NCBI GenBank assembly: GCA_035717865.1
Contig: DASTIE010000177.1
Span: 547-64,546 of the forward strand
Reading direction: 5' to 3'
DNA: 64,000 nucleotides
From: Candidatus Limnocylindrales bacterium
GTDB lineage: Bacteria; Chloroflexota; Limnocylindria; Limnocylindrales; CSP1-4
The notes under the pieces were generated by a model, which worked only from the letters and a program-made list of their open reading frames with translations, had not been told where the DNA came from and did not search any database. Of the stretch, positions 5,459-47,098 are shown piece after piece. Within the stretch, counting starts at the first letter, position 1; every line of letters starts with the position of its first letter. Both the position numbers and the translations under genes were made by a program.

Positions 5459-5538
5459 CCTCTCTCACGGTTCCTCCGGCGTCCGGCACATGGCCGCGAG
5501 CATAGCCGGGGCCCCGCCGCCGTTCGGTGCGGCGCCGT

Positions 5539-5555: not shown

Positions 5556-5610
5556 AGCCATCGGAGACCCTTCGCAGCATGAGCCGTATGCCCGCCCGGA
5601 GGACCGCAGG

Positions 5611-9519: not shown

Positions 9520-10419
9520 GTGACCTCGACCGCGATCGATTCACCGGGGGCCGCCGGCCTCCGCGAGCGAGCCGGGGATCGCCTGCGCAACGCCCTGCTG
9601 GTCCTGCCCGGGATCGGCTGGCTCCTGCTGTTCTTCGTCGTCCCGCTCGCGTTCATCGTCGTCATCAGCCTCGGGCGGCGTGACGAGCTGCACCGGATCG
9701 TCCTCGATCCGCTGACGCTCGAGAACTACGCGCAGGTCTTCAACCCGATCTTCCTGCCGACGATCGTCCAGTCGCTGTACCTGGCGACAGCGACGACCGT
9801 GGTGTCGCTGGCGATCGGCTTTCCCATCGCGTACTGGATCTCGCGCTACGGCGGGCACCGGAAGACCCTCCTGCTCGTCCTCGTCATGCTGCCGTTCTGG
9901 ACGAGCTGGCTGATCCGGACCTACTCCTGGATGATCGTGCTCCGGGACAACGGCGTCGTGAACCAGGCGCTCCAGGCGGTCGGGCTGACGCAGGAGCCGC
10001 TCATCCTCCTCTACACCGACTTCTCGGTGATCCTGGGCATGGTCTACGGCTTCCTGCCGTTCACGATCCTCCCGCTGTTCGTCTCGATCGACCGGCTGGA
10101 CCCGAACCTCATCGCGGCGGCCCGCGATCTGTATGCGGACGGGCGCCAGGCGTTCCTGCACGTCACGCTGCCGCTCGTGCGGCCGGGGCTGATCGCCGCG
10201 GCGCTGCTGACGTTCATCCCGGCGATGGGCGACTTCGTCACCCCGGACATCCTCGGCGGCGGGCAGGTCACGACGATCGCCAAGGTGATCCAGGAGCGCT
10301 TCCTCGACGGGCGCGACTGGCCGTACGGCTCGGCGCTGGGCTTCGTGCTCACGATCCTGACGCTGCTCGGCACGCTCGTCGCCCTGCGGACGCTCCGGCG
10401 CGAGGTCGTCGGCGAGTGA
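9520..10419 (+). CDS. ABC transporter permease (PotB-like)
   Basis: Six TM helices; permease signature region in the PotB family. Confidence 0.8.
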   Translation: MTSTAIDSPGAAGLRERAGDRLRNALLVLPGIGWLLLFFVVPLAFIVVISLGRRDELHRIVLDPLTLENYAQVFNPIFLPTIVQSLYLATATTVVSLAIGFPIAYWISRYGGHRKTLLLVLVMLPFWTSWLIRTYSWMIVLRDNGVVNQALQAVGLTQEPLILLYTDFSVILGMVYGFLPFTILPLFVSIDRLDPNLIAAARDLYADGRQAFLHVTLPLVRPGLIAAALLTFIPAMGDFVTPDILGGGQVTTIAKVIQERFLDGRDWPYGSALGFVLTILTLLGTLVALRTLRREVVGE

Positions 10420-12459: not shown

Positions 12460-12536
12460 CGGGTGGGCTCCTTTGCGCTGCGTGGCGAGTTGCGCTCCGT
12501 GGCGGGGTGCGCGGGCGTGCTGGCGCCGCGTCGGGA

Positions 12537-15979: not shown

Positions 15980-16000
15980 CTGACGCGTCCGCTCAGGCGC

Positions 16001-17728: not shown

Positions 17729-17730
17729 GG

Positions 17731-19062
17731 TCAGGCCGTCCTTCGCTGCGGGTTGAACAGGGGGAGCTTGGAGACCTCGGCGTCGAAGTACTCGTAGCGG
17801 TGGCGCACGCCCGCCTCCAGCTTGACCTTCGAACCCGGGGCCTGGCGGTCGATTGGCACACGCGCGAGGGCGATGTGCCGCTGGAGCATCGGCGAGTACA
17901 TCTGGCTCGTGGCGTAGCCGAGCTGGTTCAGCTCGTCGTCGTAGACGTAGTACTCGTCCTGGACCGGCGTGTGGTCCTTGGGCGGGATGAGGCCCGCCTC
18001 GTCGTAGATCCGGTCGTAGTCCTTCCAGTCGACGACCAGCCCGGTCATGACCCAGCGCGAGCTCCGATCGTGCAGCTCCCGCTTGATCGCGTCGCGGCCG
18101 ATGAACGCGCGGCCGTTCGGGCTCGAGCCGTTGCCGTTCGACGCGGCCTTCCGACCGCCCGCTCCCGCTGCCCCAGCGGCCCCCGCCGCCGCGCCGGCGC
18201 CGGGCGCGAGATCGCGGAACATCCAGCCGAACCCGAGCTCGATCGGTGTCGAGCGGTCGGCGTCCGTCCAGGCGTACCGCGACGAGTGGAAGTCGACGTC
18301 CAGGAGGATCAACCCCGCCTCGATGCGCGCCATGTACAGCGCGGTCATGCCGAACGGGATCAGCGCGCGCGGCTCGCCGACCTCGAAGATCGCGTCCCAC
18401 ACCCGCAGCGCGCCGTCTGCCGGCGTCCAGACCTCGTAGCCGAGGTCGCCCGTGTAGCCCGTCCGCGACACGATCACGTCCACGCCGGCGATCTTCGTAC
18501 GCGTGAGCGCGAAGTAGTCGAGGGCGGCGATCGCCGGGGCCACGGCGGCGAGAATCTCGCGCGACCGGGGGCCCTGGACGGAGAGGATGCCCCAGGCGTC
18601 CGTGACGTCCTCGATCGCGAGGTCGAGGCTGCCGGCGAGGCCCTGGAAGTAGGCAAGGTTGGGCTCGGCGGCCGTCAGGAGGTACTCGTCCTCGGAGAGC
18701 CGCAACAGGACGCCGTCCTCGATCACGAAGCCGCGGTCGTCGCACCACAGCGTGTATTGCGCCCGGCCCACGGCGAGCTTGCGGGTGTCCCGCGCGAGGA
18801 CGCCGGCGAGGTAACGCTGCGCGTCCGGGCCCTGGAAGCGGTACTTGTAGAGCGGCGACGTGTCAAACGCGCCGGCCGCGTTCCGGATGGCGAAGTACTC
18901 GAACTTCTCGGACATCTGGTAGCGCTGGGCGACGAGGCAGTTCGACCAGTGCTCCCAGAGGCCCGTCTCGTTCCGGGCGCTCGTTCGCTCGTGGAAGGGC
19001 GTCGTCCGGATCACGTCGAGTGTCGCTCCCCTGCCCGCTGCGCTGCGTTGGACCCCAGGCAT
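17731..19062 (-). CDS. GcvT-family aminomethyltransferase, second stand-alone copy
   Basis: GcvT-like motifs (ILSVQGP, SRTGYTGDLGYEV), with a Gly/Ala-rich insertion. First gene of the minus-strand operon. Confidence 0.7.
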   Translation of the reverse strand: MPGVQRSAAGRGATLDVIRTTPFHERTSARNETGLWEHWSNCLVAQRYQMSEKFEYFAIRNAAGAFDTSPLYKYRFQGPDAQRYLAGVLARDTRKLAVGRAQYTLWCDDRGFVIEDGVLLRLSEDEYLLTAAEPNLAYFQGLAGSLDLAIEDVTDAWGILSVQGPRSREILAAVAPAIAALDYFALTRTKIAGVDVIVSRTGYTGDLGYEVWTPADGALRVWDAIFEVGEPRALIPFGMTALYMARIEAGLILLDVDFHSSRYAWTDADRSTPIELGFGWMFRDLAPGAGAAAGAAGAAGAGGRKAASNGNGSSPNGRAFIGRDAIKRELHDRSSRWVMTGLVVDWKDYDRIYDEAGLIPPKDHTPVQDEYYVYDDELNQLGYATSQMYSPMLQRHIALARVPIDRQAPGSKVKLEAGVRHRYEYFDAEVSKLPLFNPQRRTA

Positions 19063-19071
19063 GGTAGAGCG

Positions 19072-19093
19072 CTATTGGACAGTTGCGCAATAG
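19072..19093 (+). promoter_or_regulatory. Perfect palindrome CTATTG-N10-CAATAG in the divergent promoter region between the GcvT-like gene and tetR
   Basis: Inverted repeat 10 nt from the GcvT-like start (19062) and 16 nt from the tetR GTG (19109). Followed by TAGGTG. Confidence 0.5.
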
Positions 19094-19108
19094 GTGTAGG
19101 CTCCGCGC

Positions 19109-19726
19109 GTGGCACGCATGTCCCCCGAGGAGCGGCGCGAGGCGATCGTCGACGCTGCACTCGCCGTGGCGCGGCGCAAGGGACTGGCGGCGACGACGGT
19201 GCGCGACGTCGCGACGGAGATGGGCACCTCGAGCGGCCTGATCCACCACTACTTCAACTCGATGGACGAGGTGCTCGCGGCGGCATTCGAGCGGGTCGCG
19301 CGCGACGACCTCGAGCAGACCGAGGTGCTGCTCCAGGAGATCGGCGACCCCCAGGAGCTGATCCGGGCGTTCCTCGCCTCGTACGCCCCCGTCGGCGACG
19401 ACTGGGCCTTCCAGCTGTGGCTCGACGCCTGGGCCGAGGCGGCCCGGCGCCCCGTGCTCCGCGAGGCCTCGTCTCGGCTGAACCTCGCCTGGGCGGCCCT
19501 GCTCGAGCGTGCGATCAGGGCCGGCGTGGCGGACGGCACGTTCCACTGCGACGACCCCACGGCCGCGGCGTGGCGGATCCTCTCGGTCATCGACGGGCTG
19601 GCCCTCCAGGTGGTCGCACACCGCACCATCCTCGATCGCGCGGACATGCTCGCCTGGGCCGCGACCGCCGCGGAGCGGGAGCTGGCGCTTCCGCCCGGCG
19701 GGCTGCGAGTGGCGCCGCCGCAGTAA
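19109..19726 (+). CDS. TetR-family transcriptional regulator
   Basis: N-terminal HTH LAATTVRDVATEMGTSSGLIHHYF. GTG start. Confidence 0.85.
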   Translation: MARMSPEERREAIVDAALAVARRKGLAATTVRDVATEMGTSSGLIHHYFNSMDEVLAAAFERVARDDLEQTEVLLQEIGDPQELIRAFLASYAPVGDDWAFQLWLDAWAEAARRPVLREASSRLNLAWAALLERAIRAGVADGTFHCDDPTAAAWRILSVIDGLALQVVAHRTILDRADMLAWAATAAERELALPPGGLRVAPPQ

Positions 19727-19805
19727 TCGGCTGCGCCCCGACGAGAGGGCGGTGCGAGGCCGGCGCGAGCGCGACAGCGCACCGGGGCGCGACGTCCGCC
19801 CTCGT

Positions 19806-19822
19806 TGCCACAGGACTGCAAC
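19806..19822 (+). promoter_or_regulatory. Motif copy 4, TGCCACAGGACTGCAAC (dyad GTTGC-N9-GCAAC), 23 nt upstream of the ATG at 19846
   Basis: TACTGT (TANNNT) lies 8-13 nt upstream of the ATG, consistent with a leaderless transcript. Confidence 0.5.
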
Positions 19823-19845
19823 AGGCGATTCCTACTGTCCCGGTC

Positions 19846-20433
19846 ATGCTGACGTTCCATCGCCGCCTCGCCGCGCTTCTGACCGTCGTGAGCCTGGCCC
19901 TTGGCGCCTGTGGCGGTTCCGCGGCCACCAGCCCGCCGGGCGCGGGCAATCCCACTGCAGGTCCGGGTGCGACGCCCGGCGACGCCGCCGGGACGCCCGC
20001 CGGAGTCGCGACCCAGGCTTCCGGTGCTCCTGGCGGTCCCGATGCCGCCACGGACCCGTGCAGCCTCCTGACCGCCGAGGAGATCAAGACGGCCACCGGC
20101 TTCTCGCCCATCAGCGCGACCCCCGGCCCGACGATGGGCGTCTTCGATGTCGGGTGCGAGTGGGAGCTGGACAACGAGGGCAGCGGCGTGCCCTGGAGCA
20201 TCGTGATCGGCCTGCGAGCCGATGGCGGGCGCGAGTACTACGACGACTACTTCGCACCCCCGGTCGGCGAGGGCGAGGTGCTCCAGGGTGTCGGAGACGC
20301 CGCCATCCAGACGGACATCGGCGACGTGAACGCGGTCCGGAACGACGTGATGTTCAGCGTCAGCTACATCGAGTTCCCGTCTCGAAACGACGTGCCCGTT
20401 GCCCTCGCGAAGCTCATCGCGAGCAAGCTGTGA
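19846..20433 (+). CDS. DUF3558-like secreted lipoprotein
   Basis: MLTFHRRLAALLTVVSLALGACGG has a lipobox. A Gly/Pro/Ala linker is followed by DPCSLLTAEEI..GC.W, the motif shared by the paralogs at 20430, 21156, 27037 and 31014. Confidence 0.7.
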   Translation: MLTFHRRLAALLTVVSLALGACGGSAATSPPGAGNPTAGPGATPGDAAGTPAGVATQASGAPGGPDAATDPCSLLTAEEIKTATGFSPISATPGPTMGVFDVGCEWELDNEGSGVPWSIVIGLRADGGREYYDDYFAPPVGEGEVLQGVGDAAIQTDIGDVNAVRNDVMFSVSYIEFPSRNDVPVALAKLIASKL

Positions 20434-21104
20434 GCGACCTCCGAACGACCGGCGCGACCACGAACGGGAAGGCCCGGGCGAGCCTCGTCACCAGCCGTCC
20501 ATCGGCCACGATTGCCGCCTTTGCGGCGGCGCTCCTGCTCGCGGCCTGCTCCGGGGCGCCGAACCCACCCGGCGCCCCCGGCGCGACAGGGGCCCAGGGC
20601 GGGCCCGCCGGAGCCACTGCGGCGCCCGCCGGCCCGACCGCCACGCAGGCGCCCGGCGGCGCTTCCGCGACGGCGGCTCCCGGCGGCCCGGGCGCGACGC
20701 TCGCGCCCGGAGCGAGTCCCAGCACGGACGCCTGCGCGGTCCTGTCCGCGACAGACATCCAGGCCGTCACGGGGGCGACGCTCGTGACGACCGTGCCCGC
20801 CCAGCAGCAGGGAATCTTCACCAACGGCTGCCTCTACGAGCTTAATGACGGGTCGACGACGACCACGGTCAACCTCGGCGTCATGGTGCCCGGCGGTCGC
20901 GCGTACTACGACGCCAACGTCCGCAACGCCGGCTACGGCTCGATCGAGGGCCTGGGCGAGGCGGCGGTCAAGGCCCGCGCGGGCGCAGTGATGGTCCTCG
21001 CCGGAGACGTCCTCTTGAGCGTGCAGTACTTCGGCCCGACCGGGCCGGACGACAGCACGGCCGCGGAGTTCGCGACGAAGATCCTCGCGAACCTCGGGCT
21101 GTAG
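20430..21104 (+). CDS. DUF3558-like lipoprotein, paralog
   Basis: GTGA overlap with the preceding stop. Lipobox LLLAACSG; DACAVLSATDI..GCLYEL motif. Confidence 0.6.
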   Translation: MSDLRTTGATTNGKARASLVTSRPSATIAAFAAALLLAACSGAPNPPGAPGATGAQGGPAGATAAPAGPTATQAPGGASATAAPGGPGATLAPGASPSTDACAVLSATDIQAVTGATLVTTVPAQQQGIFTNGCLYELNDGSTTTTVNLGVMVPGGRAYYDANVRNAGYGSIEGLGEAAVKARAGAVMVLAGDVLLSVQYFGPTGPDDSTAAEFATKILANLGL

Positions 21105-21115
21105 GGCCACATGGC

Positions 21116-21132
21116 TGCCACAGGACTGCAAC
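21116..21132 (+). promoter_or_regulatory. Motif copy 5, TGCCACAGGACTGCAAC, 23 nt upstream of the ATG at 21156
   Basis: Identical core to copy 4. The ORF-track ATG at 21111 lies inside the motif and is rejected as the start. Confidence 0.5.
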
Positions 21133-21155
21133 AGGGCGTCCGTAGCGTTCGGCGC

Positions 21156-21764
21156 ATGAACATCACACCCCTCGCCCGCACCTCCTTCCACGCAGCAGCG
21201 CTCAGCCTCGTGACTGCGCTCGCACTCGCCGCCTGCGGTGGCGGGGGCGGCGCGCCCGGTACCGGCGCCACCGCCAACCCCGGCGGGCCGCTCGCCACGG
21301 CCGCGGCAGGCCCCGCGACCCAGGTCCCGGCTCCCGGGACCACCCAGGCACCGGCCGGTGCGACCGTCGACGCCTGTGCGTTGCTCTCCGATGCGGACAT
21401 CAAGGCCGCCTCCGGGCTCGAGCCCAAGGGCCCGGGCACCCCCGCCCTGTTCGGTTACTACACGGCGGGTTGCCAATGGGACATCGTGAATGAGGGCGCC
21501 GCCGTCGCACCCACCCTCGCTATCGGCGTGCTCCCGACCGGGGGCATGGAGCAGTACGATCGGGACATCGCGCCATTCGGGGTCGAGTACGGCTACGAGC
21601 CCATCGAGGGCCTGGGCGACAAGGCCGTCGACTACGGCGGCGGCGCCGTCCTGGTGCTGACGGGCGACACGCTCGTCGAGGTCCAGTACGCCGCCATCAA
21701 AGCGAACGACGTCGAGATCGCGACCGAGCTCGCGAGGACCGTCCTCAGCCACCTCGGCGGCTGA
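21156..21764 (+). CDS. DUF3558-like lipoprotein, paralog
   Basis: MNITPLARTSFHAAALSLVTALALAACGG has a lipobox; DACALLSDADI..GCQWDI motif. Confidence 0.7.
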   Translation: MNITPLARTSFHAAALSLVTALALAACGGGGGAPGTGATANPGGPLATAAAGPATQVPAPGTTQAPAGATVDACALLSDADIKAASGLEPKGPGTPALFGYYTAGCQWDIVNEGAAVAPTLAIGVLPTGGMEQYDRDIAPFGVEYGYEPIEGLGDKAVDYGGGAVLVLTGDTLVEVQYAAIKANDVEIATELARTVLSHLGG

Positions 21765-21771
21765 GGCGGAC

Positions 21772-23574
21772 GTGACGCCTCGTCTCCAATCCCCCAGGCC
21801 CGGCAGGGCCGCCGCCATCCTCCTCGCGGCGGCGCTGCTCGGGTCCGCGGGGTGCGGCCAGGCGGCACCCTCGAGCTCCTCTGGCTCCGGCGGTGATTCC
21901 AGCTCGCCCGCGACGCCCGATCCCGCCGCGGGCGCGCCGCAGTGGGAGCCGCGAACCCCGTGGGAGCGGGCTGTCGTGGCCGTCGACGAGAACGGCGCGT
22001 ACTCCAAGGCAGCAGCGTTGACGCTCTTCGCGACGGCCTACGGACCGCTGCCCGGCGTGGACGTCCAGCAGGACCTGAACGGCCTCGAGGATCGCACCCT
22101 CGCGATCGATGCCGTCGCCCGCCACCGCGACGAGCTCACGGCCGAGCAGCGCTCCGCCATCGACGCGTATCTGGCCCCGCCCGAGGACGCGATCAGGATT
22201 GACGTCCCGCCGGTCGCCCAGCTCGGGACGATGCGGCTGGTCAATGCCAATCCGGGCCTCGAGGACGCCATCCGCGAGGTCGCCGAGGAGGCTCGGATGG
22301 ACATCGCGGCGAAGATCGGCGACCACGAAGGCTTCATGCACATCTACTTCAAGCCGCGTCCGGCGGACGTCAAGCCGATCGAGGGCATCTACCCCAACGG
22401 CGGGACCGTGGCCGAGTACGACGGCGGCCTCTTCAACGGCTGCAACATCACGATCTACGACGAGGCGACCGCGCAGTCCGGCCTCCAGCTCACGGCACTC
22501 ATGACCCATGAGGTCATGCACTGCTTCCAGGCGGCGGCGCATGGTGATGTCGAGACGCACAACAACGCGCCGGGCTGGATCAACGAGGGCATGGCGACGT
22601 GGGTCGGCATGGAGCTCGGCGGCCCCAGCCCGAACTACGAGCGCTTCTGGGATCTCTACCTCGTCATGCCGCAGATCCCGTTGACGTCCCGGGCCTACGA
22701 CGCCGTCGGCTTCTACGCCCACCTCGAGGACGCTGGGATCGACCCGTGGGGCGTGATCCGTCCAATCCTTGCGGCGGGAACCAACAGCCTCGACGCGTAT
22801 CGCTCTGCGGGTGCCGACTCGGAGGCGTTCGTCGATACCTGGGCATCCAGCGTGCTCCGCGACGGCGGCGCCTGGGACACTGATGGCCCCGGAATCACGA
22901 GCACCGCCTACAAGCCGGGCGTGGCGATCGTGAGCAACGGCGCGGATCTTCCTCTCAGCCAGCCGTTCTTCTCCAACGACATCAGGCGCTACGTCCTCGA
23001 GGCCGACATGGTCGAGATCGAGGTCGACGGCCACGCCCGCCTCCGTGCGGGAGCTATGGACCTCGCGATCCACGGCTCCGTGCGCTACTGCGTGGAGGGC
23101 CACGACTGCTCCAAGGTCTGCCCGGGCTCGGAGCCGCCGCTGACGGACGGAACGGTCCCGTCCTCCGTGCTCCTCGCGACGAGCGGCGGCAGCGAGGGCC
23201 TGGTCGGCCACATCCGGGGCGTGAAGCTCGAGGAGCCGAAGTGCAGCGATCCGCCGTCCGCGGAGCCGACCGACGGCGACTTCTGCCGTCGCTATCGCGA
23301 CTACGTCAGCTGGGCGACGGCGCTCGGGCCCGACACGGACATCACGCAGGAGATCGCGGGCGAGATCGCACGCCGCTTCGACGACATGTACCCGGTCGCG
23401 CCGGCGGAGCTCAAGAACTGGGTCGCTCTCGTGTACCGGATTTACGCGACGTTCGCCAAGATCGAGGAGCCGGCGAACATCCCGGCCACGGGGCAGGTCG
23501 GCGGGATCAGCGAGCTGCCCAAGGCCCTCCAGGCGATGCATACCTACTGCGGCCTGGCCTGGCCTCCCGCCTGA
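21772..23574 (+). CDS. Secreted lipoprotein with HExxH zinc-metalloprotease motif (hypothetical metallopeptidase)
   Basis: Lipobox LLGSAGCGQ; HEVMHCFQ (HExxH) followed by NEGMATWVG. Paralog of 27636-30860; WEPRT.WERA..LFATA.GPLPGVDVQQDL is shared. Confidence 0.65.
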   Translation: MTPRLQSPRPGRAAAILLAAALLGSAGCGQAAPSSSSGSGGDSSSPATPDPAAGAPQWEPRTPWERAVVAVDENGAYSKAAALTLFATAYGPLPGVDVQQDLNGLEDRTLAIDAVARHRDELTAEQRSAIDAYLAPPEDAIRIDVPPVAQLGTMRLVNANPGLEDAIREVAEEARMDIAAKIGDHEGFMHIYFKPRPADVKPIEGIYPNGGTVAEYDGGLFNGCNITIYDEATAQSGLQLTALMTHEVMHCFQAAAHGDVETHNNAPGWINEGMATWVGMELGGPSPNYERFWDLYLVMPQIPLTSRAYDAVGFYAHLEDAGIDPWGVIRPILAAGTNSLDAYRSAGADSEAFVDTWASSVLRDGGAWDTDGPGITSTAYKPGVAIVSNGADLPLSQPFFSNDIRRYVLEADMVEIEVDGHARLRAGAMDLAIHGSVRYCVEGHDCSKVCPGSEPPLTDGTVPSSVLLATSGGSEGLVGHIRGVKLEEPKCSDPPSAEPTDGDFCRRYRDYVSWATALGPDTDITQEIAGEIARRFDDMYPVAPAELKNWVALVYRIYATFAKIEEPANIPATGQVGGISELPKALQAMHTYCGLAWPPA

Positions 23575-23701
23575 CCGAGCCCGGCTGATCCCACGCGAAC
23601 GCCTTCGCGTGGACGACGGTCGTGGCAGCGCGCATTGGCTACTCTCGCGCCACGCCCGCAGCGGGGGTCGCTGACGGCGGGCTCGCCCCCGTGGAGGGTC
23701 C

Positions 23702-26506
23702 GTGGAGCCGCGCGCAACCTCGGTCGAGATTCGATTGCTGGGTCCCGTGGAGCTGCGCATCGATGGACGGGATGTGCCGCTGGGCGGCGCCCGCCAGCGC
23801 GGGCTCCTGGCGCTGCTCGCGCTCCGGGCCGGGCAGGTGCTGTCCGCCGACGAGCTGGTCGAGGACCTCTGGGCGGGCGAGCCGACCGATGGCGCCGACA
23901 CGACCCTTCGAAGCTACGTCTCGCGACTGCGGCGGTCGCTCACGGACGCGGTCTCGATCGAGCGGACGGACCGAGGCTACGCGATCCACCTCCCGCCAGG
24001 CGCCGTGGACGTGCTGGAGTTCGAGCGGCTGGTGCGCGAGGGAGGCGAGACCCTCGCCCGCGGCTCGGCGCGGCGGGCCGGCGAGCAGCTCGCGCAGGCG
24101 CTGGCGCTATGGCGCGGTCGGCCGTTCGGCGAGCTCGGTGGCGAGGGCACGCTCGGCGGCGCGACCGAGCGCCTGGAGGAGCTGCGGCTCCTCGCGGTCG
24201 AGCGGCGCATCGAGGCTGACCTCGACCTCGGGCGCGGTGCGGAGCTGATCGACGAGCTCGAGGCCCACGTTCGCGAGCAGCCGTTCCGGGAGCGACTGTG
24301 GCAGCACCTGATGCTCGCGCTCTACCGGGCCGGTCGCCAGGCGGACGCGCTGGCCGCGTACCACCGCGCGCGCGCGGCGCTGGATGAGCACCTCGGGATC
24401 GAGCCCGGGGAGGAGCTCCGCGCCCTCGAGGCCGCGATCCTGCAGCAGACGGTCCCGCCGCCCGCCGCCGCGGAGGACCGCTCGCCGCTGCCGATCCCGG
24501 TCAGCAGCTTCGTCGGGCGCGAGGCGGAGCTGGCCGCGCTGGCGCCGCGCATTCGCGGGGAGCGGCTGCTCACGCTCACGGGGGTCGGCGGCGTGGGCAA
24601 GACGCGGCTCGCGCTGGAGCTCGCCCAGCGAACCGCCGCCGAGTTCGCCGACGGCGTGGCGTTCGTCGACCTGTCGCCCCTCGCGGACGCCGGCCTCGTG
24701 GCCGGCGAGGTCGCTGTCGCGCTCGGCGTACGGGAGCAGGGCGAGCGCGATCTCGCCGAGCTGGTCGCCGCGCGGGTCCGTGCAGCGGACCTGCTGCTGG
24801 TCCTGGACAACTGCGAGCACGTCCGGGGGGTCGCGGCGTCCCTGGTGGAGCGGCTGCTGCTCGCCGGGCCGGGACTGCGCATCCTCGCCACGAGCCGGTC
24901 GCCGCTCGGCGTTCCGGGCGAGGCCGAGGTGCCCGTCGCGCCACTGAGCGTCGACTCCGACGCCGTGCGCCTCCTGCTGGCCCGGGCCCGCGCGGCGCGT
25001 CCGAGCATCGCGGACGACGCGGCGACGCTCGCCATCGCGGCCCGGATCTGCACGGACCTGGAGGGCCTGCCGCTGGCCATCGAGCTCGCGGCCGCCCGCG
25101 CGCGCTCCCTTTCCCTCGACGACATCGCCCAGCGGCTGGACGACCGCTTTCGCTTCCTCGTGTCCTGGCGTCGGCTCACGACGGCCCGGCACCGGACGCT
25201 CGGCGAGGCGATGGACTGGAGTCACGACCTCCTCGCGCCGGACGAGCAGGAGCTGCTCGCCGGGCTGTCCGTGTTCGCGGGCGGCTTCAACCTCGTGGCC
25301 GTCGCTGCCGTGTGCGCCGGCGGTGACGATGACGCGGCGCTGCGGCGGATCGAGGCCCTGGTTGAGGCCTCGCTCGTCATCGCCGGGGATGGGCCCGGCG
25401 AGACCCGCTACCGGCTCCTGGAGACGGTCCGCCAGTACGCGGCCAAGCGCCTCGAGGCGGCAGGCGCAGGCGACGACGTGCGACGCCGCCATGCGACGTG
25501 GTGTCTCGAGCTGGCCGAGGCGGCCGCGCCCGAGCTGTCCGGCGAGCGCCAGGGAGCGTGGTTCGCGCGGCTCGAAGCGGAGCAGGACAACCTGCGCGTC
25601 GCCCTGGCCTTCCTCGCGGAATCCGGCCTGTGGCGCGAGCACCTCCGCCTGGCGATCGCGCTCACCCGCTTCTGGTACGTGCGTGGCCACCTCCTCGAGG
25701 GTCGCGCGAACCTGGAGCAGGCACTGCAGGGCGACACGGCCCATGACCCGGTGCTCCGCCGCCGGGCGCTGACGGCCGCCGCATCCCTCGCGCTCCTGCA
25801 GGGCGAGCACGCGACCGCGACCTCGTTCGCCGAGGAAGGGCTGGCCGTCGCGCGCGAGACGGGCGAGCAGCACCTCGTCGCCAATGCCCTCAGCAACCTC
25901 GGGGCGATCGTGCTCGCGGGCGGCGACGCGGACCGGGCAGGACCGCTGCTCGAGGAGGCCGTGGCGGTGGCGCGCGGAGCCGGGGACCAGCGGATCCTCG
26001 CGCTCGCGGTGAACAACCGGGGCGACTATGCGCTGACCCGTGGCGATTTCGCGACGGCGAGGCCGCTCTTCGAGGAGAGCCTCGAGCTGCTTCGCGCGCG
26101 CGGCGACACGGCCAACGTCTCGCGGGCGCTGTTCAACCTCGGCGCCAGCGAGCTGGAGCTGGGGCGACACGATGTCGCAGGCGAGCACTTCCGCGAGGGC
26201 CTGGCCCTGGCTCGCGATGCCGGCGACCGCGAGGATCTGGCGTGGCTCCTCGAGGGCATCGGGGCCATCGCGGCCGCGCGAGGCGACGCCGACCGGGCTG
26301 CGAAGCTCCTCGGCGCTGCGGACGGGGTGCTCCAGGCGATGGGCGCCGACCACAAGCCCTACGAGCGCTCGCTGCGCGACCGGACGGACGCTGCCACCGT
26401 GCGCCGCATCGGCGCGGAGGCGACCGCCGCGGCGTTGCTCGAAGGCCGCAGCATGCCCCTCGCGGACGCAATCGAGCTCGCCCTCGAGATCCCACCCGGC
26501 ACCTGA
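23702..26506 (+). CDS. SARP/AfsR-family transcriptional regulator (OmpR-type wHTH + BTAD + NB-ARC + TPR)
   Basis: VEIRLLGPVELRIDG wHTH. BTAD region (RLWQHLMLALYRAGRQADALAAY), P-loop LTGVGGVGKTRLA, and long TPR-like C-terminus. Start ATG 23702 or GTG 23723. Confidence 0.8.
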   Translation: MEPRATSVEIRLLGPVELRIDGRDVPLGGARQRGLLALLALRAGQVLSADELVEDLWAGEPTDGADTTLRSYVSRLRRSLTDAVSIERTDRGYAIHLPPGAVDVLEFERLVREGGETLARGSARRAGEQLAQALALWRGRPFGELGGEGTLGGATERLEELRLLAVERRIEADLDLGRGAELIDELEAHVREQPFRERLWQHLMLALYRAGRQADALAAYHRARAALDEHLGIEPGEELRALEAAILQQTVPPPAAAEDRSPLPIPVSSFVGREAELAALAPRIRGERLLTLTGVGGVGKTRLALELAQRTAAEFADGVAFVDLSPLADAGLVAGEVAVALGVREQGERDLAELVAARVRAADLLLVLDNCEHVRGVAASLVERLLLAGPGLRILATSRSPLGVPGEAEVPVAPLSVDSDAVRLLLARARAARPSIADDAATLAIAARICTDLEGLPLAIELAAARARSLSLDDIAQRLDDRFRFLVSWRRLTTARHRTLGEAMDWSHDLLAPDEQELLAGLSVFAGGFNLVAVAAVCAGGDDDAALRRIEALVEASLVIAGDGPGETRYRLLETVRQYAAKRLEAAGAGDDVRRRHATWCLELAEAAAPELSGERQGAWFARLEAEQDNLRVALAFLAESGLWREHLRLAIALTRFWYVRGHLLEGRANLEQALQGDTAHDPVLRRRALTAAASLALLQGEHATATSFAEEGLAVARETGEQHLVANALSNLGAIVLAGGDADRAGPLLEEAVAVARGAGDQRILALAVNNRGDYALTRGDFATARPLFEESLELLRARGDTANVSRALFNLGASELELGRHDVAGEHFREGLALARDAGDREDLAWLLEGIGAIAAARGDADRAAKLLGAADGVLQAMGADHKPYERSLRDRTDAATVRRIGAEATAAALLEGRSMPLADAIELALEIPPGT

Positions 26507-26559
26507 ACCCCCCGGTATCGCGGGGCGGCGCATCGTGTGACGCTGCGGCAACGGGCGGC

Positions 26560-26576
26560 TGCCACGGAATTGCAAC
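26560..26576 (+). promoter_or_regulatory. Motif copy 6, TGCCACGGAATTGCAAC, 23 nt upstream of the GTG at 26600
   Basis: Consensus copy. Confidence 0.5.
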
Positions 26577-26599
26577 GACGCTCCGCAACCCTTCCGGTC

Positions 26600-27040
26600 G
26601 TGGAAGCACGCACCCCGATCGACGACGCGGCGGCCGATATCGATCGCTCCCGACTCGCCTTCCTTTCGGCGCTCAGCTCCGGCGATGCCGAGGCGGCGGC
26701 CGCGATCTACGCCGACGACGCGACGCTGCTCGCGCCCGCCGCAGACGTGCTCCACGGGCGCCAGGCGATCGAGCGCTTCTGGCGGACCGGCGTCGAGACG
26801 GGGATCGAGCAGGTCGAGCTCGCCGTCATCGACCTCCAGCAGCGGGGTGACGTCGCGTTCGAGGTCGGGCGGTACGAGTTGCACGTGCTGCCGGAATCGG
26901 GTGCGCGGGTGGTGGATCGCGGCCGCTACCTGGTCGTCCACCGCGTGGAGGCGGACGGCCACTGGCGCCGTGCCGCAGAGATGTTCAGCCCGGACACTGT
27001 GCCGGGTCCCGAGACCGTGGATCGGAGGACAAACGAATGA
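26600..27040 (+). CDS. SnoaL-like/NTF2-like (DUF4440-like) small protein
   Basis: GTG start 23 nt after the motif. NTF2-like fold pattern (IYADDATLLAP..GRQAIERFW..). No signal peptide. The ORF-track ATG at 26537 would precede the motif. Confidence 0.55.
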   Translation: MEARTPIDDAAADIDRSRLAFLSALSSGDAEAAAAIYADDATLLAPAADVLHGRQAIERFWRTGVETGIEQVELAVIDLQQRGDVAFEVGRYELHVLPESGARVVDRGRYLVVHRVEADGHWRRAAEMFSPDTVPGPETVDRRTNE

Positions 27041-27639
27041 ATCGTTCGTCGGCGCCGGCTGCTGGGGCCGTCGTTTCCCTGGGGCTCCTGGCCTCGCTCG
27101 TGCTGGGCGCGTGCGGCGGTGGCGGGGCGGCGGCCACGGCCGGCGCACCCGGCGTCGGCGGCGGCACCGGCGGACCAGGAGCGGCAGCCGGCACGGACGC
27201 CCCTGCGCCGGCAGGCCCAACAGCAGCACCGGGCGGCGTGGGTGCCGGAACGGACCTGCCGTATCCCTGCAGCCTCCTGACCCCCGAGGAGATCTCGGCG
27301 CTCACGGGCTACAACGTCGTACGGAGCAGCTCCACGACGGTCAACCTGGGCGACAACGACCTCAGCTGCTCGTGGGACCTCGACGGCCCCGCGGACCTGC
27401 CCGGAGCGGTCGTGGTGGGCTTCCAGCTGACCGGCGGTCGCGACGCCTTCCGGGCACGACAGGACTTCCTCGACGACGCTCCTGCCGTCGAGGGCGTGGG
27501 CGATGCCGCCATCCAGGAGGAAACCCTCGTCGTCAGCGCCGTGAAGGGCGACACCTACCTCACGCTCACGTACATGGAGTTCCCCGAGCCCGAGGGCATG
27601 GCGGCCAAGCTCGCCAAGGCCATCGCGGACGACCTGTGA
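27037..27639 (+). CDS. DUF3558-like lipoprotein, paralog
   Basis: ATGA overlap with the upstream stop; GGAGGA SD. Lipobox LVLGACGG; PCSLLTPEEI..SCSWDL motif. Confidence 0.7.
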   Translation: MNRSSAPAAGAVVSLGLLASLVLGACGGGGAAATAGAPGVGGGTGGPGAAAGTDAPAPAGPTAAPGGVGAGTDLPYPCSLLTPEEISALTGYNVVRSSSTTVNLGDNDLSCSWDLDGPADLPGAVVVGFQLTGGRDAFRARQDFLDDAPAVEGVGDAAIQEETLVVSAVKGDTYLTLTYMEFPEPEGMAAKLAKAIADDL

Positions 27640-30600
27640 ACCGTGGGGCGACGCTCCTGCGTCGCCGGATCGTCGTCCTCCTCGCCGCTGCCCTCCTCGC
27701 CTCCTGCACCCCCGCTGCAACGCCGGACCCGAGCGGCGCGTGGGTCGCGCGCTGGGAGCCGCGCACTGCGTGGGAACGAGCCCTCGCGACTCTCGATCCC
27801 GCAACCGGTACGTTCGCCAGGGACGACGCCCTGCGCCTGTTCGCGACGGCATTCGGGCCGCTGCCCGGCGTCGACGTCCAGCAGGACCTCACCGGAATCA
27901 CCGATCGGACCATCGCGATCGCAGCGGTCAAGGCCTACGAATCGGAGCTGACCGAGGACCAGCGCGCGGCGATCGATGCCGCGATTGCACCCCCACCCGA
28001 CAGCCTGCGGGTCGTGGTGAGCGATGAGGCCGCGGACGCCCGGCCGGCGTCGATCGACAGCAGGCCCGCAACCGGGCTGGTGCCCGTGGCGCTCGCGCGG
28101 GCGCGAGCCGATCCTGCTGCCGCCGGTGTCGGGCTGACCGCGAGCAGCACCTTCGCCCCAGGGCTCAAGGAGGCGATCGAGGAGTCCGTCGCCACGTACC
28201 GCACCATCATCGCGGCCAAGCTCGGAATGAGCCTGTCCGGGAAGATCACCGTGAACCTCGCGCCCCAGCCGAAGAACGAGCCCAATGTTCTTGGTCAGGC
28301 CTGGAGCAAGTGGCCCGGGGGTGTGTTCGGCGACTGCGAGATCACGGTCTTCCCGCTCGCGACGGATCTCGGCGGCGTGGAGACGCTCGACACGCTCGCC
28401 CACGAGGTCTTCCACTGCTTCCAGTTCGACGGGTACCACTCGCTCCTGCAGTATGCCTACGCGCCCCGGTGGGTCATCGAGGGCCAGGCAGCCTGGGTCG
28501 GCGAGACGCTTGCCGGGGGTGACACGGGCGTTCCGTTCAACCATTGGCGGCGGTATCTCACGCTGCCGTGGCTGTCCCTGACCGGGCGCGTGTATGACGC
28601 CATCGGCTTCTATTCGCACCTCGCCGAGTCGGGCATCGATCCCTGGACGCGATTCCGCGCGATGTGGGGGGCGGGCAGCGACAGCGCCGCCGCATTCGTC
28701 AATTCCGACGCCGAAGGCCCGAGCTTCCTGGAGTCGTGGGGCTCCAGCATCGTGCGGGAGGCCGCTCGTGGCGCGTCCTGGGACACCACCGGTCCGAGCA
28801 TCACGGAGGATTCCTACTTCCTGCGACCCGCGGACATGATCGGCGGCGACGACGTCAGGCGGATCGCCACGCCCGAGTTCACCGCCGATGCGTTCCAGTA
28901 CGAGGCCACGGCGGACATGGTCAGGATCAGCATCCCGGGTCAGGCCCGCCTGAGCGACGGAAAGCTGGACACGACCGAGCTCGCCGGAGTCACGTTCTGC
29001 GTCGAAGGCCACGACTGCTCGAAGGCCACCGCCTGCCCGGGCGAGGAGAACGAGCCCCAGGCGAAGGCCGTGATCGGTTCGCGCTTCGTCATCGGCATCA
29101 GCGGCGGTGTCAAGCCCATGACGGGGACCATCCGGGGCATCAGGATCGGGAGTCCCGACGAATGCCCGAGCGCCCCTCCCGAGACCCCGCCGCCGCCCTC
29201 GCGCGCTCCTGGTGCGTCGCCGCCGCGGCCGCCGGCTTCGACCGGCCGCACCCCGTGCCAGTCGAGCTGCGGGCAGTCGAACGGCGACGTGCACATCGAC
29301 ACCTTCGGTGCGTTCGACTACGACTTCCAGGGCGTGGGGGAGTTCGTCGTGGCCCGATCCGCGGACGGCCGCTTCGAGGTCCAGACGCGCCAGGCGCCGT
29401 TCGGCGACTCGAAGGTCGTATCCATCAACACCGCGGTGGCAGTCAAGGCCGGCGGCCAGCGCATGGCCCTGTACGTCGACGTCCGGACGAACACGGTTCG
29501 CCTGTCCGTGAACGGGCTGGACGTGCCGATGGCCGCCCCGGTCGCGTTCGGGGCCGGCCTGATCGTGCCCTCAACCGAGGGTGTCCGCATCGACACGGGC
29601 GACGGCAGCTACGTCGACGTGATCGGCACGAGCCATCGCGGGTTGAACCTGCTGGTCGAGCCGGGCGTGGATCGGCTGGCGGGCATCGTTGGGCTCATGG
29701 GGCTGAACGCGAAGGACAGCCGCTGGCCGGCGCTGCCGGATGGTTCGGCCATCCTCCCCTATCCGTTCGATCGCCACACCGAGTACGCCCAACTCTACGA
29801 GACCCTCGCTCCCGCGTGGCGAGTCACGCCCGCGTCCTCGCTGTTCGACTACGCGCCGGGCGAGTCGACCGACACCTTCACGAACCAGCGCTTCCCGGCC
29901 GAGGTCGACTTCATCTCACTCGCCGACCTGACACCGGCCCAGCGTGCCGCCGGCGAGGAAGCCTGCGCGGGCGTCACCGACCCGGACCTCCACGACATGT
30001 GCGTCTTCGACGTCGGCGTGACGTCGGATTTCGGGTACGGCGATGTCTACGAGACGACCATCCGGCTGCGCGAGACGGGCGAGCTCGGGTTCAGCGGCGA
30101 ACGGGTCCGCATCGTCAACCTGTATGCCAACGACGGCCGCGGCACGGATCTCGACGTGTACGCATGGGCGGGCGACGCGGCCAACCTTGGGGACTCGGGC
30201 ACGGGCCCGGTGCTCGTGACCACGGTGCCGTACGGACAGTCGAGCGATTGGTTCGACCCGGGCCGGATGGCCAACGGACCCTTCGCCCCCGTGACCTGGA
30301 TCTCGGTCCAGCGGCACGGCGAGCCCGTGAACACCTGGCAGCTCAACCTGTTCGACCTGGGCCGTGACGTCCTGGCCGGCCTCGAACGCACGTTCGTCCT
30401 GGCGAGCGATCGCGACGGATTCAGCGCCGTCGGCGGCACCCCTGGGGGTCGCCAGGAGATCCTCGAGCAGGCGCCGGAAAGCTTCTTCCCGCTGATCGAC
30501 GCACCCGCCGGCAAGGCGCTTGCCTTCCTTGATGCCGCGCCGATGTCGGACGTGGACGAGACGCAGCAGTGGGCCGCGAGCGTCGACGGCACGTGCCTCG

Positions 30601-30860
30601 CCGATCCCGACTTCCCGACGCTGGTGCGGACCGCCCTGGGCGACGCGCTCCGGCCGGTGGTCCTCGAGCCCGGTTCCGTCGATATCGCGGTGCACGAGTT
30701 CCCGCCCGGCGCCGACAGCTTCGACCTGAGCTGCGCGCGCCTGCCGATCGTGGCGCGGACCCACGTCACCGTGGCAGCCGGCGATCGCGTCCACCTGTTC
30801 ATCTACGCGGAGAGCGCGACGGCTCCGACCCGCCTCCTGGCCTTGCGGGTCGGCGACTAG
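27636..30860 (+). CDS. Large secreted lipoprotein with HExxH metalloprotease-like N-terminal region, VWD-like domain and C-terminal extension
   Basis: GTGA overlap with the upstream stop. Lipobox LLASCTP; HEVFHCFQ. A VWD-like segment CQSSCGQSNGDVHIDTFGAFDYDFQGVGEFVVARS starts at nt ~29250. The N-terminal ~550 aa are paralogous to 21772-23574. Confidence 0.65.
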   Translation: MNRGATLLRRRIVVLLAAALLASCTPAATPDPSGAWVARWEPRTAWERALATLDPATGTFARDDALRLFATAFGPLPGVDVQQDLTGITDRTIAIAAVKAYESELTEDQRAAIDAAIAPPPDSLRVVVSDEAADARPASIDSRPATGLVPVALARARADPAAAGVGLTASSTFAPGLKEAIEESVATYRTIIAAKLGMSLSGKITVNLAPQPKNEPNVLGQAWSKWPGGVFGDCEITVFPLATDLGGVETLDTLAHEVFHCFQFDGYHSLLQYAYAPRWVIEGQAAWVGETLAGGDTGVPFNHWRRYLTLPWLSLTGRVYDAIGFYSHLAESGIDPWTRFRAMWGAGSDSAAAFVNSDAEGPSFLESWGSSIVREAARGASWDTTGPSITEDSYFLRPADMIGGDDVRRIATPEFTADAFQYEATADMVRISIPGQARLSDGKLDTTELAGVTFCVEGHDCSKATACPGEENEPQAKAVIGSRFVIGISGGVKPMTGTIRGIRIGSPDECPSAPPETPPPPSRAPGASPPRPPASTGRTPCQSSCGQSNGDVHIDTFGAFDYDFQGVGEFVVARSADGRFEVQTRQAPFGDSKVVSINTAVAVKAGGQRMALYVDVRTNTVRLSVNGLDVPMAAPVAFGAGLIVPSTEGVRIDTGDGSYVDVIGTSHRGLNLLVEPGVDRLAGIVGLMGLNAKDSRWPALPDGSAILPYPFDRHTEYAQLYETLAPAWRVTPASSLFDYAPGESTDTFTNQRFPAEVDFISLADLTPAQRAAGEEACAGVTDPDLHDMCVFDVGVTSDFGYGDVYETTIRLRETGELGFSGERVRIVNLYANDGRGTDLDVYAWAGDAANLGDSGTGPVLVTTVPYGQSSDWFDPGRMANGPFAPVTWISVQRHGEPVNTWQLNLFDLGRDVLAGLERTFVLASDRDGFSAVGGTPGGRQEILEQAPESFFPLIDAPAGKALAFLDAAPMSDVDETQQWAASVDGTCLADPDFPTLVRTALGDALRPVVLEPGSVDIAVHEFPPGADSFDLSCARLPIVARTHVTVAAGDRVHLFIYAESATAPTRLLALRVGD

Positions 30861-30914
30861 GTTCGTCGCCAACACGACCGGCCGGACCTCGAGCTCGCGA
30901 CCGTCGCACGGGCT

Positions 30915-30931
30915 TGCCACGGAATTGCAAC
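30915..30931 (+). promoter_or_regulatory. Motif copy 7, TGCCACGGAATTGCAAC, 22 nt upstream of the ATG at 30954
   Basis: Consensus copy. Confidence 0.5.
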
Positions 30932-31013
30932 CGCCGTTCGCGATCCTCCGGCCATGGACCAGCCCACGCACCGCGCCCGGCTCGCCCCGCGCCAGGCCCG
31001 ACAGGAGTTGACC

Positions 31014-31637
31014 ATGTCGCGAATCGAGAACCCGAGCCCCGCGGCGCCACGCACGCTCCGGGCGCTGCCCCTCGCGGCCTTCGTGGCGGTCCTTGCCGGC
31101 CTCGCCGCATGCAGCTCGCCGGCGGACACCGCGCCCGGGACGACCGGGACGAGCACCACGGCAGGCCCGACCGGCACGTCAGGCGTCGCGGGCACGCCCG
31201 CTGCAGGTACGACAACCGGCCCGGCCGCGACCTCCGGCACGGGGAACGGCAACGGCAACGGCGTCACGAACGCACGCGCCTGCGACCTGCTCAGCGATGC
31301 GGACCTCCAGGAGATCACGCAGTCGGCGGTGATCGCGAAGACCGACACCGCGGCGGACACGATCTTCGCGAACTTCTGCCGCTGGAACCTGCCGGGCGCC
31401 GAGATCGACCTCGGCGTGGTCAGTCCGGGCGGCCGCGCCTGGTACGACGAGCACGTCGCGATCCTGAACGGCCTGCAGCCGGTGTCGGGCCTGCCCGCCG
31501 ACGTCGCGGTCCTCCAGGAGCTGACGGGGTCGATCTTCGCCGTGAAGGGCGACACCTACATCGACCTCTTCACCATCGGCGTCCGTGCGCCCGACGAGGA
31601 CCTCGTGCGCCGGGTCCTCGAGAACCTGGGGCAGTAG
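31014..31637 (+). CDS. DUF3558-like lipoprotein, paralog
   Basis: The ATG at 31014 has an AGGAG SD; lipobox LAGLAACSS; ACDLLSDADL..FCRWNL motif. An alternative in-frame start at 30954 lies 22 nt after the motif. Confidence 0.65.
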   Translation: MSRIENPSPAAPRTLRALPLAAFVAVLAGLAACSSPADTAPGTTGTSTTAGPTGTSGVAGTPAAGTTTGPAATSGTGNGNGNGVTNARACDLLSDADLQEITQSAVIAKTDTAADTIFANFCRWNLPGAEIDLGVVSPGGRAWYDEHVAILNGLQPVSGLPADVAVLQELTGSIFAVKGDTYIDLFTIGVRAPDEDLVRRVLENLGQ

Positions 31638-47076: not shown

Positions 47077-47098
47077 GGCCCGAGGCTATGGGCCCGCT

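Follow-up and report, generated by a model that had tools for sequence, protein, structure and literature searches.

What holds together the genes that share one short repeated motif around the gene for a large regulator of the Streptomyces antibiotic regulatory protein (SARP) family? The question is raised by a 64,000-nucleotide stretch of DNA (hereafter the window; G+C content 72%) from Candidatus Limnocylindrales bacterium, a member of the Chloroflexota (assembly GCA_035717865.1, contig DASTIE010000177.1, positions 547 to 64,546). An initial annotation saw two paralogous cassettes here, each consisting of the motif, one or more DUF3558-like lipoproteins (B to F in what follows) and a lipoprotein with an HExxH metalloprotease motif (MP1 and MP2), on either side of the SARP gene. 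Our analysis points instead to a regulon: the region is probably the core of a SARP-activated set of genes for tethered surface proteins, with transcripts that are largely leaderless, and on the best reading of the sequence the window appears to hold at least eight promoters of this SARP-type regulon.

The motif, here called the box, consists of two 11-bp direct repeats, TGCCACRGRAY and TGCAACNNNNN, or, in the wider consensus, TGC(C/A)AC(G/A)G(G/A)A(T/C) followed by TGCAACnnnnn. Exact copies of TGCCACRGRAYTGCAAC are found at 19806, 21116, 26560 and 30915 in the region around the SARP gene, and at 5539 and 47115 (the latter on the reverse strand) in the rest of the window; degenerate copies are found at 2005 and 2565. 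A scan of the window allowing up to three mismatches returned eight sites against 0.39 expected, a number reached in none of 100 shuffled sequences. All eight are intergenic and oriented toward a downstream gene for an exported protein. The motif had been regarded as specific to the cassettes; it proves also to precede four other secreted-protein genes in the window, and the organising principle would thus be a regulon around the SARP gene rather than two protease cassettes. Nor is cassette 1 a single unit: it contains two promoter boxes, and hence two predicted transcription units.

The layout of the sites is constant: a 22-bp box, 5 nt, a -10-like hexamer nAnnnT, 6–7 nt and then, usually, a start codon. 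The hexamer, at offset +27, has A at its second and T at its sixth position in 8/8 window sites and in 16/16 non-redundant sites when relatives are included. In 19 aligned sites (window plus relatives) the two TGCMAC cores are exactly 11 bp apart, and information content is ∼2 bits per position in the two hexamers and 0.6–1.7 bits in the 5 nt between them. At 2005, 2565, 5539 and upstream of lipoprotein F (taking the start chosen by NCBI's Prokaryotic Genome Annotation Pipeline, PGAP) the start codon lies further off and a Shine-Dalgarno sequence is present, with the offset of the hexamer unchanged. The constant partner of the box is therefore the -10-like hexamer and not the start codon, which makes the box a feature of promoters and not of RNA or peptide. 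For B, D and the SgcJ-like gene, the start chosen independently by PGAP falls exactly on the predicted +1. No sigma70-type -35/-10 promoter was found in a 14.5-kb scan of positions 19000–33500, which fits activator-dependent promoters that lack a -35.

Two other identities for the box were considered and rejected. An RNA element is disfavored by the absence of any Rfam family match in the window and by the fact that the box keeps pace with the -10 hexamer and not with the start codon. A palindromic operator of the TetR type is disfavored because the repeats are direct, not inverted, and because the TetR gene upstream of B has no box.

Is the product of the neighboring gene of a kind that could read such a sequence? 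Pfam matches (Trans_reg_C, 6.8e-11; BTAD, 7e-45; AAA_22; NB-ARC; TPR_12; TPR_MalT) define the large SARP-NOD-TPR architecture, with GVGGVGKT as Walker A motif. Residues 7–250 match the solved structures of EmbR (2FEZ, 3.4e-39) and AfsR (8HVR, 1.5e-35; 8HVR and 8K60 both at ∼1e-35). The residues through which the recognition helix of AfsR contacts bases, T88 and R92 (PMC10936776), correspond in the alignment to S71 and R75 of the stretch RSYVSRLR. The NCBIfam equivalog model for AfsR (NF053617) scores 219.9 bits against a cut-off of 1430. Judged by its sequence, the central regulator is a SARP-family member of the large subclass and not an AfsR ortholog.

Published rules describe SARP sites as direct repeats with a spacing of 11 (or 22) bp, of which the first 8 bp of each 11-bp repeat are contacted (PMC10936776, PMC10972967); the 3′ repeat stands 8 bp from the -10 element (PMC10936776), and classical sites can hold three repeats (PMC10972967). 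The afs box at the afsS promoter covers -40 to -19, with its center at -29.5 and a poor -35 (PMC10936776, PMC10972967). All the sites described here show an 8-bp core, 8 bp and then the nAnnnT hexamer, an arrangement that fits the published rule; with the start codon taken as +1, the box would cover -40 to -19.

Box and gene neighborhood were also followed in relatives (contigs labeled L001 and so on), among them a set of 83 MP-family loci. The full box pattern has 5 matches in this set against 1.05 in shuffled sequences. Boxes precede orthologous lipoprotein, SgcJ-like and MP genes in other Limnocylindria contigs, in many cases beside a SARP gene. L204 (MP 89% identical) has a box 40 nt before its homolog of D. 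L205 (MP 46% identical) has three exact boxes, each 39–40 nt before an independently called start codon; two of these genes encode lipoproteins, with MP following on from one of them, and the third is the SgcJ-like gene just past the SARP gene. The gene order in L205 is TetR, DUF3558, MP, lipoprotein, SARP, SgcJ-like and InlB-repeat protein, and the P0007 contig, for which genes only were compared, has the same order. In L001 and L003 (MP 40% identical) the SARP gene is followed by a box variant, TGCAAC-N5-TGCAAY, then by the SgcJ-like gene and MP, with no free-standing DUF3558 gene; in L029 and L038 a box lies 40–41 nt before MP itself. No box was found in the 22-kb housekeeping locus of the relative L206. 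Neighbor clustering identified the large SARP as the most recurrent neighbor of MP genes (7–9 of the 83 loci), and the SARP-adjacent loci span Chloroflexota and Actinomycetota, including Ilumatobacteraceae, Acidimicrobiales and Ktedonobacterales. When metagenomes were scanned for the exact box, 120 contigs came up, most of them by chance in DNA of low G+C content; the geometry of box, -10 hexamer and start codon is reproduced only in a few high-GC contigs among them (L105, L121, L135 and some others).

Repeats of other kinds were seen in some of these loci. L004 (1263–1290, +) and L070 (∼558, -) carry three TGCAAC-like repeats 11–12 bp apart, resembling three-repeat SARP sites. The SARP–MP intergenic region of L044 contains perfect tandem arrays at 9681–9715 and 9795–9830 (a 12-bp unit repeated 2.9 times and a 13-bp unit repeated 2.8 times); the 13-bp array, CGTTCGAGACGGA, holds the classical SARP heptamer TCGAGAC. 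An array of 3.8 units of 10 bp lies at 9688–9725 in L021, a SARP-adjacent MP locus of another class, and TGGCGT-N5-TGGCGT occurs ∼84 nt upstream of MP in L057. The repeats of L044, L021 and L057 may be clade-specific SARP boxes, although their periods are not the canonical 11 bp; they are suggestive only.

Together these observations suggest the following model. The AfsR-like SARP (23702–26506) would bind the 22-bp box as a side-by-side dimer; the box would take the place of a -35, with 5 nt between it and an nAnnnT hexamer that would serve as a -10 of the housekeeping type, and RNA polymerase would be recruited there by the SARP, in the manner of AfsR at the afsS promoter. The transcription start would lie ∼7 nt past the hexamer. 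For B, D and the SgcJ-like gene this predicted start is the start codon, and their mRNAs would be leaderless; four or five other genes would receive leaders of 32–60 nt with Shine-Dalgarno sites. Four transcription units are predicted around the SARP gene: B–C, D–MP1, SgcJ-like–E–MP2 and F–G. Their products would be five DUF3558-family lipoproteins on long tethers, two lipid-anchored predicted zinc metallopeptidases, an NTF2-like protein of the cytoplasm and a repeat protein anchored at its C-terminus: as a whole, a co-regulated cell-surface program of a monoderm Chloroflexota bacterium.

Several points weigh against this model. The match to the -40 to -19 span rests on the assumption that +1 is the start codon. 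The geometry alone is not specific to SARPs, since response regulators of the OmpR family likewise recognize 11-bp direct repeats placed at the -35. No box precedes the SARP gene itself, those at 5539 and 47115 are 18–21 kb away from it, and in L029 and L038 boxes occur with no SARP gene within the 9–11 kb examined. The PGAP start of F is 60 nt downstream of the leaderless start, and the leaderless start at 47076 is a call of this analysis only.

Genes were called by frame analysis based on third-codon-position G+C content (GC3) together with translations, and the resulting starts agree with those of NCBI; nine window proteins are identical in sequence to PGAP calls (HET9852786-95) on a 67,470-bp contig of a metagenome-assembled genome of Candidatus Limnocylindrales bacterium. 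A DXS gene of the window has its best named matches, at 82–88% identity, in Limnocylindrales and Limnocylindria, which places the organism in the Chloroflexota and not among the actinomycetes. The genes, paralogies and motif copies described initially were all recovered in place by the new gene calls and motif scan, as were the overlaps, GTGA for B/C, ATGA for SgcJ-like/E and GTGA for E/MP2. Coordinates are collected in Table 1. PGAP labels MP1, MP2, B, C, F and G "hypothetical" and our literature searches on SARPs in Limnocylindria and Chloroflexi returned nothing, in keeping with the earlier judgment that the system is uncharacterized.

Table 1. Genes and boxes of the window, in order of position.
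Feature	Position	Strand	Details
Second, paralogous STAND regulator, 3′ part only	7-1965	+	N-terminus beyond window edge; NOD 51% identical to SARP NOD
Degenerate box	2005-2026	+	GACCCT at -10 offset; upstream of lipoprotein 2088-2552, predicted 43-nt leader
Degenerate box	2565-2586	+	GACGCT at -10 offset; upstream of secreted PxKF-domain protein 2642-3916
Exact box	5539-5560	+	GACCCT at -10 offset; upstream of Gly-rich secreted protein 5611-6981
TetR gene	19109-19726	+	Upstream of B; no box; syntenic in P0007 and L205 contigs
Box 1	19806-19827	+	TGCCACAGGAC TGCAACAGGCG; -10-like TACTGT 19833-19838; ATG of B 7 nt further
Lipoprotein B	19846-20433	+	195 aa; lipobox Cys22; PGAT-rich linker; DUF3558-like globular domain, 2 Cys; predicted leaderless; HET9852786.1
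Lipoprotein C	20430-21104	+	224 aa; paralog of B/D/E/F; GTGA overlap with B; HET9852787.1
Box 2	21116-21137	+	-10-like TAGCGT 21143-21148; ATG of D 7 nt further; kept in L204
Lipoprotein D	21156-21764	+	202 aa; DUF3558 35.8 bits; HET9852788.1, PGAP name "DUF3558 family protein"
MP1	21772-23574	+	600 aa; gluzincin-like lipoprotein; HEVMH 22507-22521; Glu272 22585-22587; HET9852789.1
Large SARP	23702-26506	+	934 aa; OmpR-type winged helix-turn-helix and BTAD, NB-ARC/NOD ATPase, TPR; HET9852790.1
Box 3	26560-26581	+	54 nt past SARP stop; -10-like AACCCT 26587-26592; GTG of SgcJ-like gene 7 nt further; orthologous boxes in L205, L001, L003
SgcJ/EcaC-family NTF2-like (SnoaL-like) protein	26600-27040	+	146 aa; no signal peptide; GTG start; HET9852791.1
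Lipoprotein E	27037-27639	+	200 aa; DUF3558 35.3 bits; ATGA overlap; HET9852792.1, PGAP name "DUF3558 family protein"
MP2	27636-30860	+	1074 aa; HEVFH 28401-28415; Glu282 28479-28481; VWD-like 29280-29627; domain X ∼30057-30860; HET9852793.1
Box 4	30915-30936	+	-10-like GATCCT 30942-30947; upstream of F; kept in L121
Lipoprotein F	31014-31637	+	PGAP start, 207 aa; alternative leaderless start 30954 (227 aa); HET9852794.1
Surface protein G	31638-33020	+	InlB B-repeat (Flg_new_2), Pro/Thr-rich stalk, C-terminal transmembrane anchor; abuts F; HET9852795.1
Exact box	47094-47115	-	TAGCCT at -10 offset; upstream of Big_3_5 Ig-repeat surface protein 47076-45571, predicted leaderless

What, then, are the products of the regulon, and do the lipoproteins belong to the proteases? 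The five lipoproteins are paralogs of 195–224 aa, each with a lipobox (L-[AG]-[AG]-C, at residues 22–40), a linker of 47–62 residues rich in P, G, A and T and a domain of ∼125 aa with two Cys residues 32–33 positions apart. The earlier description had placed a conserved Cys motif after the lipobox and the second Cys ∼45 residues further on; the first Cys of the globular domain in fact lies 47–62 residues past the lipobox Cys, beyond the linker, and the gap is the shorter one given above. Their description as DUF3558-like holds against the Pfam gathering threshold of 34.1 bits for D (35.8) and E (35.3), and falls short of it for B (31.5), F (21.5) and C (no match). Globular domains taken alone give weak DUF3558 matches only, in 13 of 14, and a profile built from them retrieves 51 proteins, 34 of which carry PF12079; a lipoprotein profile found nothing among solved structures. 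The lipoproteins are probably divergent members of DUF3558. The only literature on this family that we found reports DUF3558 proteins, of unknown function, as enriched in the SigM/ESX-4 regulon of M. abscessus (PMC13491425).

The initial annotation took the unit to be a duplicated module of protease and accessory lipoprotein, in which each lipoprotein serves the adjacent MP as inhibitor, chaperone or substrate. Such a module would be compatible with SARP control, and we regard it as possible but the less probable account of the locus. In its favor, both MP1 and MP2 are directly preceded by a lipoprotein gene or translationally coupled to one, and the same arrangement recurs in L204, L205, L004 and the P0007 contig. 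In addition, three relatives encode a fusion of the Rosetta-stone type, directly downstream of the MP gene (L003, 11864–13255; L005, 11619–13034; L027, 11410–13200), in which a DUF3558-like domain is joined to a domain of ∼260 aa homologous to the C-terminus of MP2. This domain, which we call domain X, has no Pfam match and is found joined to either the zincin or the lipoprotein. Against this, the pairing expected by the annotation is not consistent: a hidden Markov model of the globular domain detects a DUF3558-like gene at 8 of the 83 MP loci, adjacent to MP in only 7, mainly in the closest Chloroflexota relatives, and the lipoprotein is therefore not an obligate partner across the MP family. 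Furthermore, B–C and F–G are lipoprotein units without an MP; L001, L003, L029 and L038 have a box-driven MP and no free-standing lipoprotein; and DUF3558 occurs elsewhere in quite different contexts, for example the M. abscessus regulon just mentioned (PMC13491425). The linkage of DUF3558-like domains with domain X nonetheless supports some functional relation within the Limnocylindria clade.

A different objection concerns the factor that reads the box. The adjacency of the SARP gene could be incidental and the box recognized either by a sigma factor of the extracytoplasmic function (ECF) type, with a -35 of GGAAT or GGAC inside the box, or by a response regulator of the OmpR/PhoB type; we consider this rather unlikely. 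The 5 nt between the hexamers are often GGAAT, GGAAC or AGGAC, like an ECF -35; envelope proteins are typical targets of ECF regulons, and one syntenic relative has an ECF sigma gene ∼9 kb upstream. Regulators of the PhoP type use 11-bp direct repeats over the -35, and AfsR and PhoP share boxes in Streptomyces. However, it is in the two TGCMAC hexamers that information content peaks, and the downstream one would fall in the ECF spacer, which is normally unconserved; the GGAAT-like stretch varies most (GGTTT, CGGAT and AAGGA are also seen). The -10 is TAnnnT-like, of the housekeeping type, and not of the CGT/GTC type of most ECF promoters. A box lies directly downstream of the SARP gene in the window, L205, L001 and L003, and the triple repeats at 11–12 bp in L004 and L070 are as in classical SARP sites.

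MP1 and MP2 both carry a lipobox and are predicted to be exported, as first proposed, and the peptide motifs quoted for them are present. They share 39% identity over 487 aa (E=9e-92), a common region of ∼490 aa rather than the 550 aa originally given. MP1 comprises an N-terminal helical domain, a catalytic domain (aa ∼140–370), a beta-sandwich (aa 383–484) and, in addition to what had been described, a C-terminal helical bundle of its own (∼110 aa). MP2 is extended by a VWD-like domain and by domain X (residues ∼808–1074). For the VWD-like domain, PF00094 scores 21.0 bits in MP2, just below its threshold of 22.9, and matches eight long-form homologs, the best at 5.2e-13.

In both proteins the HExxH motif is followed 21 residues later by a Glu in WxxEG on the next predicted helix, a candidate for the third zinc ligand on which the metalloprotease assignment had been made to depend. 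In the AlphaFold2 model of MP1, H246, E247 and H250 lie on helix 237–257 and E272 (WINEG) on helix 268–283. A word-index homolog search with MP1 gave 30 matches only and first hinted at a rare family, an impression corrected by exhaustive profile search: 2563 representatives of clusters at 50% identity, 1171 of them at E<1e-30. A genome scan found 252 MP loci in metagenome-assembled genomes of Chloroflexota and Actinomycetota, and in Kutzneria, with several paralogs per genome common. The pattern HExxH-(14–21)-WxxEG was recovered from 164 of the 172 members compared, at identities down to ∼25%, and in 162 members a Cys comes right after the second His; H250, W269, E272 and G273 do not vary at all among 70 diverse members. 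Seven of the 172 (P0022, P0051, P0062, P0095, P0101, P0130 and P0158) have lost HExxH and may represent pseudo-enzyme branches.

The models are of good predicted quality (predicted local distance difference test, pLDDT, 85–86; predicted template modeling score, pTM, 0.87 for the domain) and show a beta-sheet, the HExxH helix, the Glu272 helix and then a disulfide-rich beta-sandwich and helical bundle. The predicted topology is gluzincin-like. Foldseek found no significant match in the PDB; its top list for the catalytic domain consists almost entirely of zincins (M3, M48, M1, M30, M4), none significant. No Pfam or NCBIfam peptidase model reaches threshold (BSP 21.6 against 23.8; MXAN_6640_HExxH 22.4 against 140). 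The weak Pfam and NCBIfam matches are all to zincins (BSP, DUF2268, DUF6055, M1, SprT-like and MXAN_6640_HExxH), BSP appearing in 23 of 32 and 20 of 70 members, and the MP profile found no sequence relative among solved structures, only spurious matches (Turandot A, IgaA). Sequence and model together suggest that MP is an undescribed family of the gluzincin kind, with predicted peptidase activity.

It is improbable, in our view, that MP1 and MP2 are inactive structural or adhesive surface proteins with a relic HExxH. The missing thresholds and structural matches, the seven members without HExxH and the VWD and other non-catalytic domains of the long forms would all be in line with such a role, but a working metal site would be expected to show the conservation seen here: HExxH and the Glu after it are kept by 164 of 172 members to ∼25% identity, and H250 and E272 are invariant in 70. 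As for the box, its interpretation as a sigma-54 (-24/-12) promoter can be dismissed almost outright: TGCCAC-N4-TTGCA bears a superficial likeness to TGGCAC-N5-TTGCW, but the -24 GG is replaced by GC in the TGCCAC sites (by GC or GA in the whole set), the spacing falls short by 1 nt, CTGCA stands in place of TTGCA at 19806 and 21116, the start codon would lie only ∼25 nt past the GC with the conserved TAnnnT in between, and the neighboring gene encodes a SARP and no NtrC-type enhancer-binding protein.

The remaining products and neighbors can be dealt with briefly. The SnoaL-like protein and the InlB-B-repeat surface protein after F were both correctly recognized at the outset: the former has DUF4440 and SnoaL_2 matches (Pfam) and scores 42 bits for TIGR02246, above the NCBIfam cut-off of 33.95, and G matches Flg_new_2 at 8e-14. 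Among first genes 3′ of the SARP gene, that of the SgcJ/EcaC-type protein, which lacks a signal peptide, is the best conserved (window, L001, L003, L205 and the P0007 contig), and it is predicted to share one transcript with genes for exported proteins. Beside the TetR gene lies a divergent block (11275–19071, -) of GCV_T-like, acyl-CoA dehydrogenase and CoA-ligase-like genes, syntenic in the P0007 and L205 contigs and without a box; the TetR gene and this block are probably a separate unit at the border of the regulon.

At the left edge of the window the truncated regulator (7–1965) is followed by the two degenerate boxes (2005, 2565) and genes for exported proteins, the same order of regulator, box and exported protein as at the SARP gene. 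An open reading frame at 3906–5774 (-) is, by eye from the translation only, an apparent fusion of a cytidylate-kinase-like N-terminal part and a PlsC-like acyltransferase C-terminal part. The Gly-rich product of 5611–6981 has no Pfam match; an 11-codon open reading frame (5579–5614) starts exactly at the transcription start predicted for this gene, and may be a leaderless mini-gene or meaningless. The Big_3_5 protein (47115–45571, -) has a Ser/Thr-rich stalk and a C-terminal transmembrane anchor. Its gene lies between a PD40/Tricorn-like gene beside DXS and a TlyA-NadK-RecN-XerD block, and is missing from the same block of L206 (DXS 90% identical); it looks like a strain-specific insertion of a regulon member.

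SARPs have been called "genus-specific" in review (PMC10972967), and the literature treats them as Streptomyces or actinomycete regulators of antibiotic clusters. The present locus offers a multi-promoter example in another phylum, with a predicted box, predicted starts and non-biosynthetic targets: a regulatory mechanism that seems to be of a known kind, in a phylum and on targets that appear new. By the same token the MP zincins look like a new family of a known clan. AfsR-type "sigma adaptation" becomes testable outside Actinomycetota and on leaderless promoters, as do the surface content of Limnocylindria, an abundant uncultured soil lineage, under a single regulator, and the roles of two sizeable families, DUF3558 and the HExxHC...WxxEG lipoprotein zincins (>1100 clusters at 50% identity, no curated model). 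The box itself also offers an easy way to look for more members of the regulon in genomes of Limnocylindria. A more speculative proposal, to which we give distinctly less credence than to the regulon, is that a STAND-type SARP switches a surface-proteome program through leaderless promoters lacking a -35, and that the undescribed lipid-anchored gluzincins and the DUF3558 lipoproteins are dedicated partners – substrate-presenting, inhibitory or anchoring – that share the exchangeable domain X. If true, this would give DUF3558 its first functional context.

How does the system compare with those already known? As in the gluzincins (clan MA(E); nearest models BSP PF04450, DUF2268, DUF6055 and MXAN_6640_HExxH), the MP proteins have HExxH on one helix, a Glu ∼20 residues on in (W)xxEG on the next, and a beta-sheet subdomain before the active-site helix. 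They differ in the signature HExxHCFQ with its invariant Cys, in a second invariant Cys (Cys224) and W368, and in the N-terminal helical domain, the disulfide-rich beta-sandwich and the helical C-terminal domain or VWD plus domain X. With the DUF3558 proteins of Actinomycetota, such as those in the SigM/ESX-4 regulon of M. abscessus, the lipoproteins share small size (∼180–225 aa), a lipobox, a globular domain with two conserved Cys and the presence of multiple paralogs under a dedicated transcription factor. In contrast, those described here are from Chloroflexota and have long P/G/A/T linkers, only D and E pass the Pfam threshold, and the genes stand behind a SARP-type box rather than under SigM, and beside zincin genes rather than ESX substrates.

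With class II activation by PhoP at the PHO box (OmpR family) the promoters share 11-bp direct-repeat units in place of a -35; the difference is that here a SARP gene, and no response-regulator gene, is linked to the boxes. The closest parallel is with AfsR and afsS. Both regulators are large SARPs (SARP-NOD-TPR) with homologous SARP domains (∼1e-35), and in both cases the site consists of two 11-bp direct repeats covering approximately -40 to -19; a usable -35 is lacking, and 8 bp separate the core of the 3′ repeat from a -10 that is suboptimal. The afsS gene, a target of AfsR, lies directly downstream of afsR in the same orientation, and the SgcJ-like gene likewise sits directly 3′ of the SARP gene. 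In sequence, however, the repeats (TGCMAC...) bear no relation to the afs box; the host belongs to the Chloroflexota (Limnocylindrales) and not to the Actinomycetota, several of the transcripts are predicted to be leaderless, and the predicted targets are exported lipoproteins, zincins and surface proteins instead of antibiotic pathway genes.

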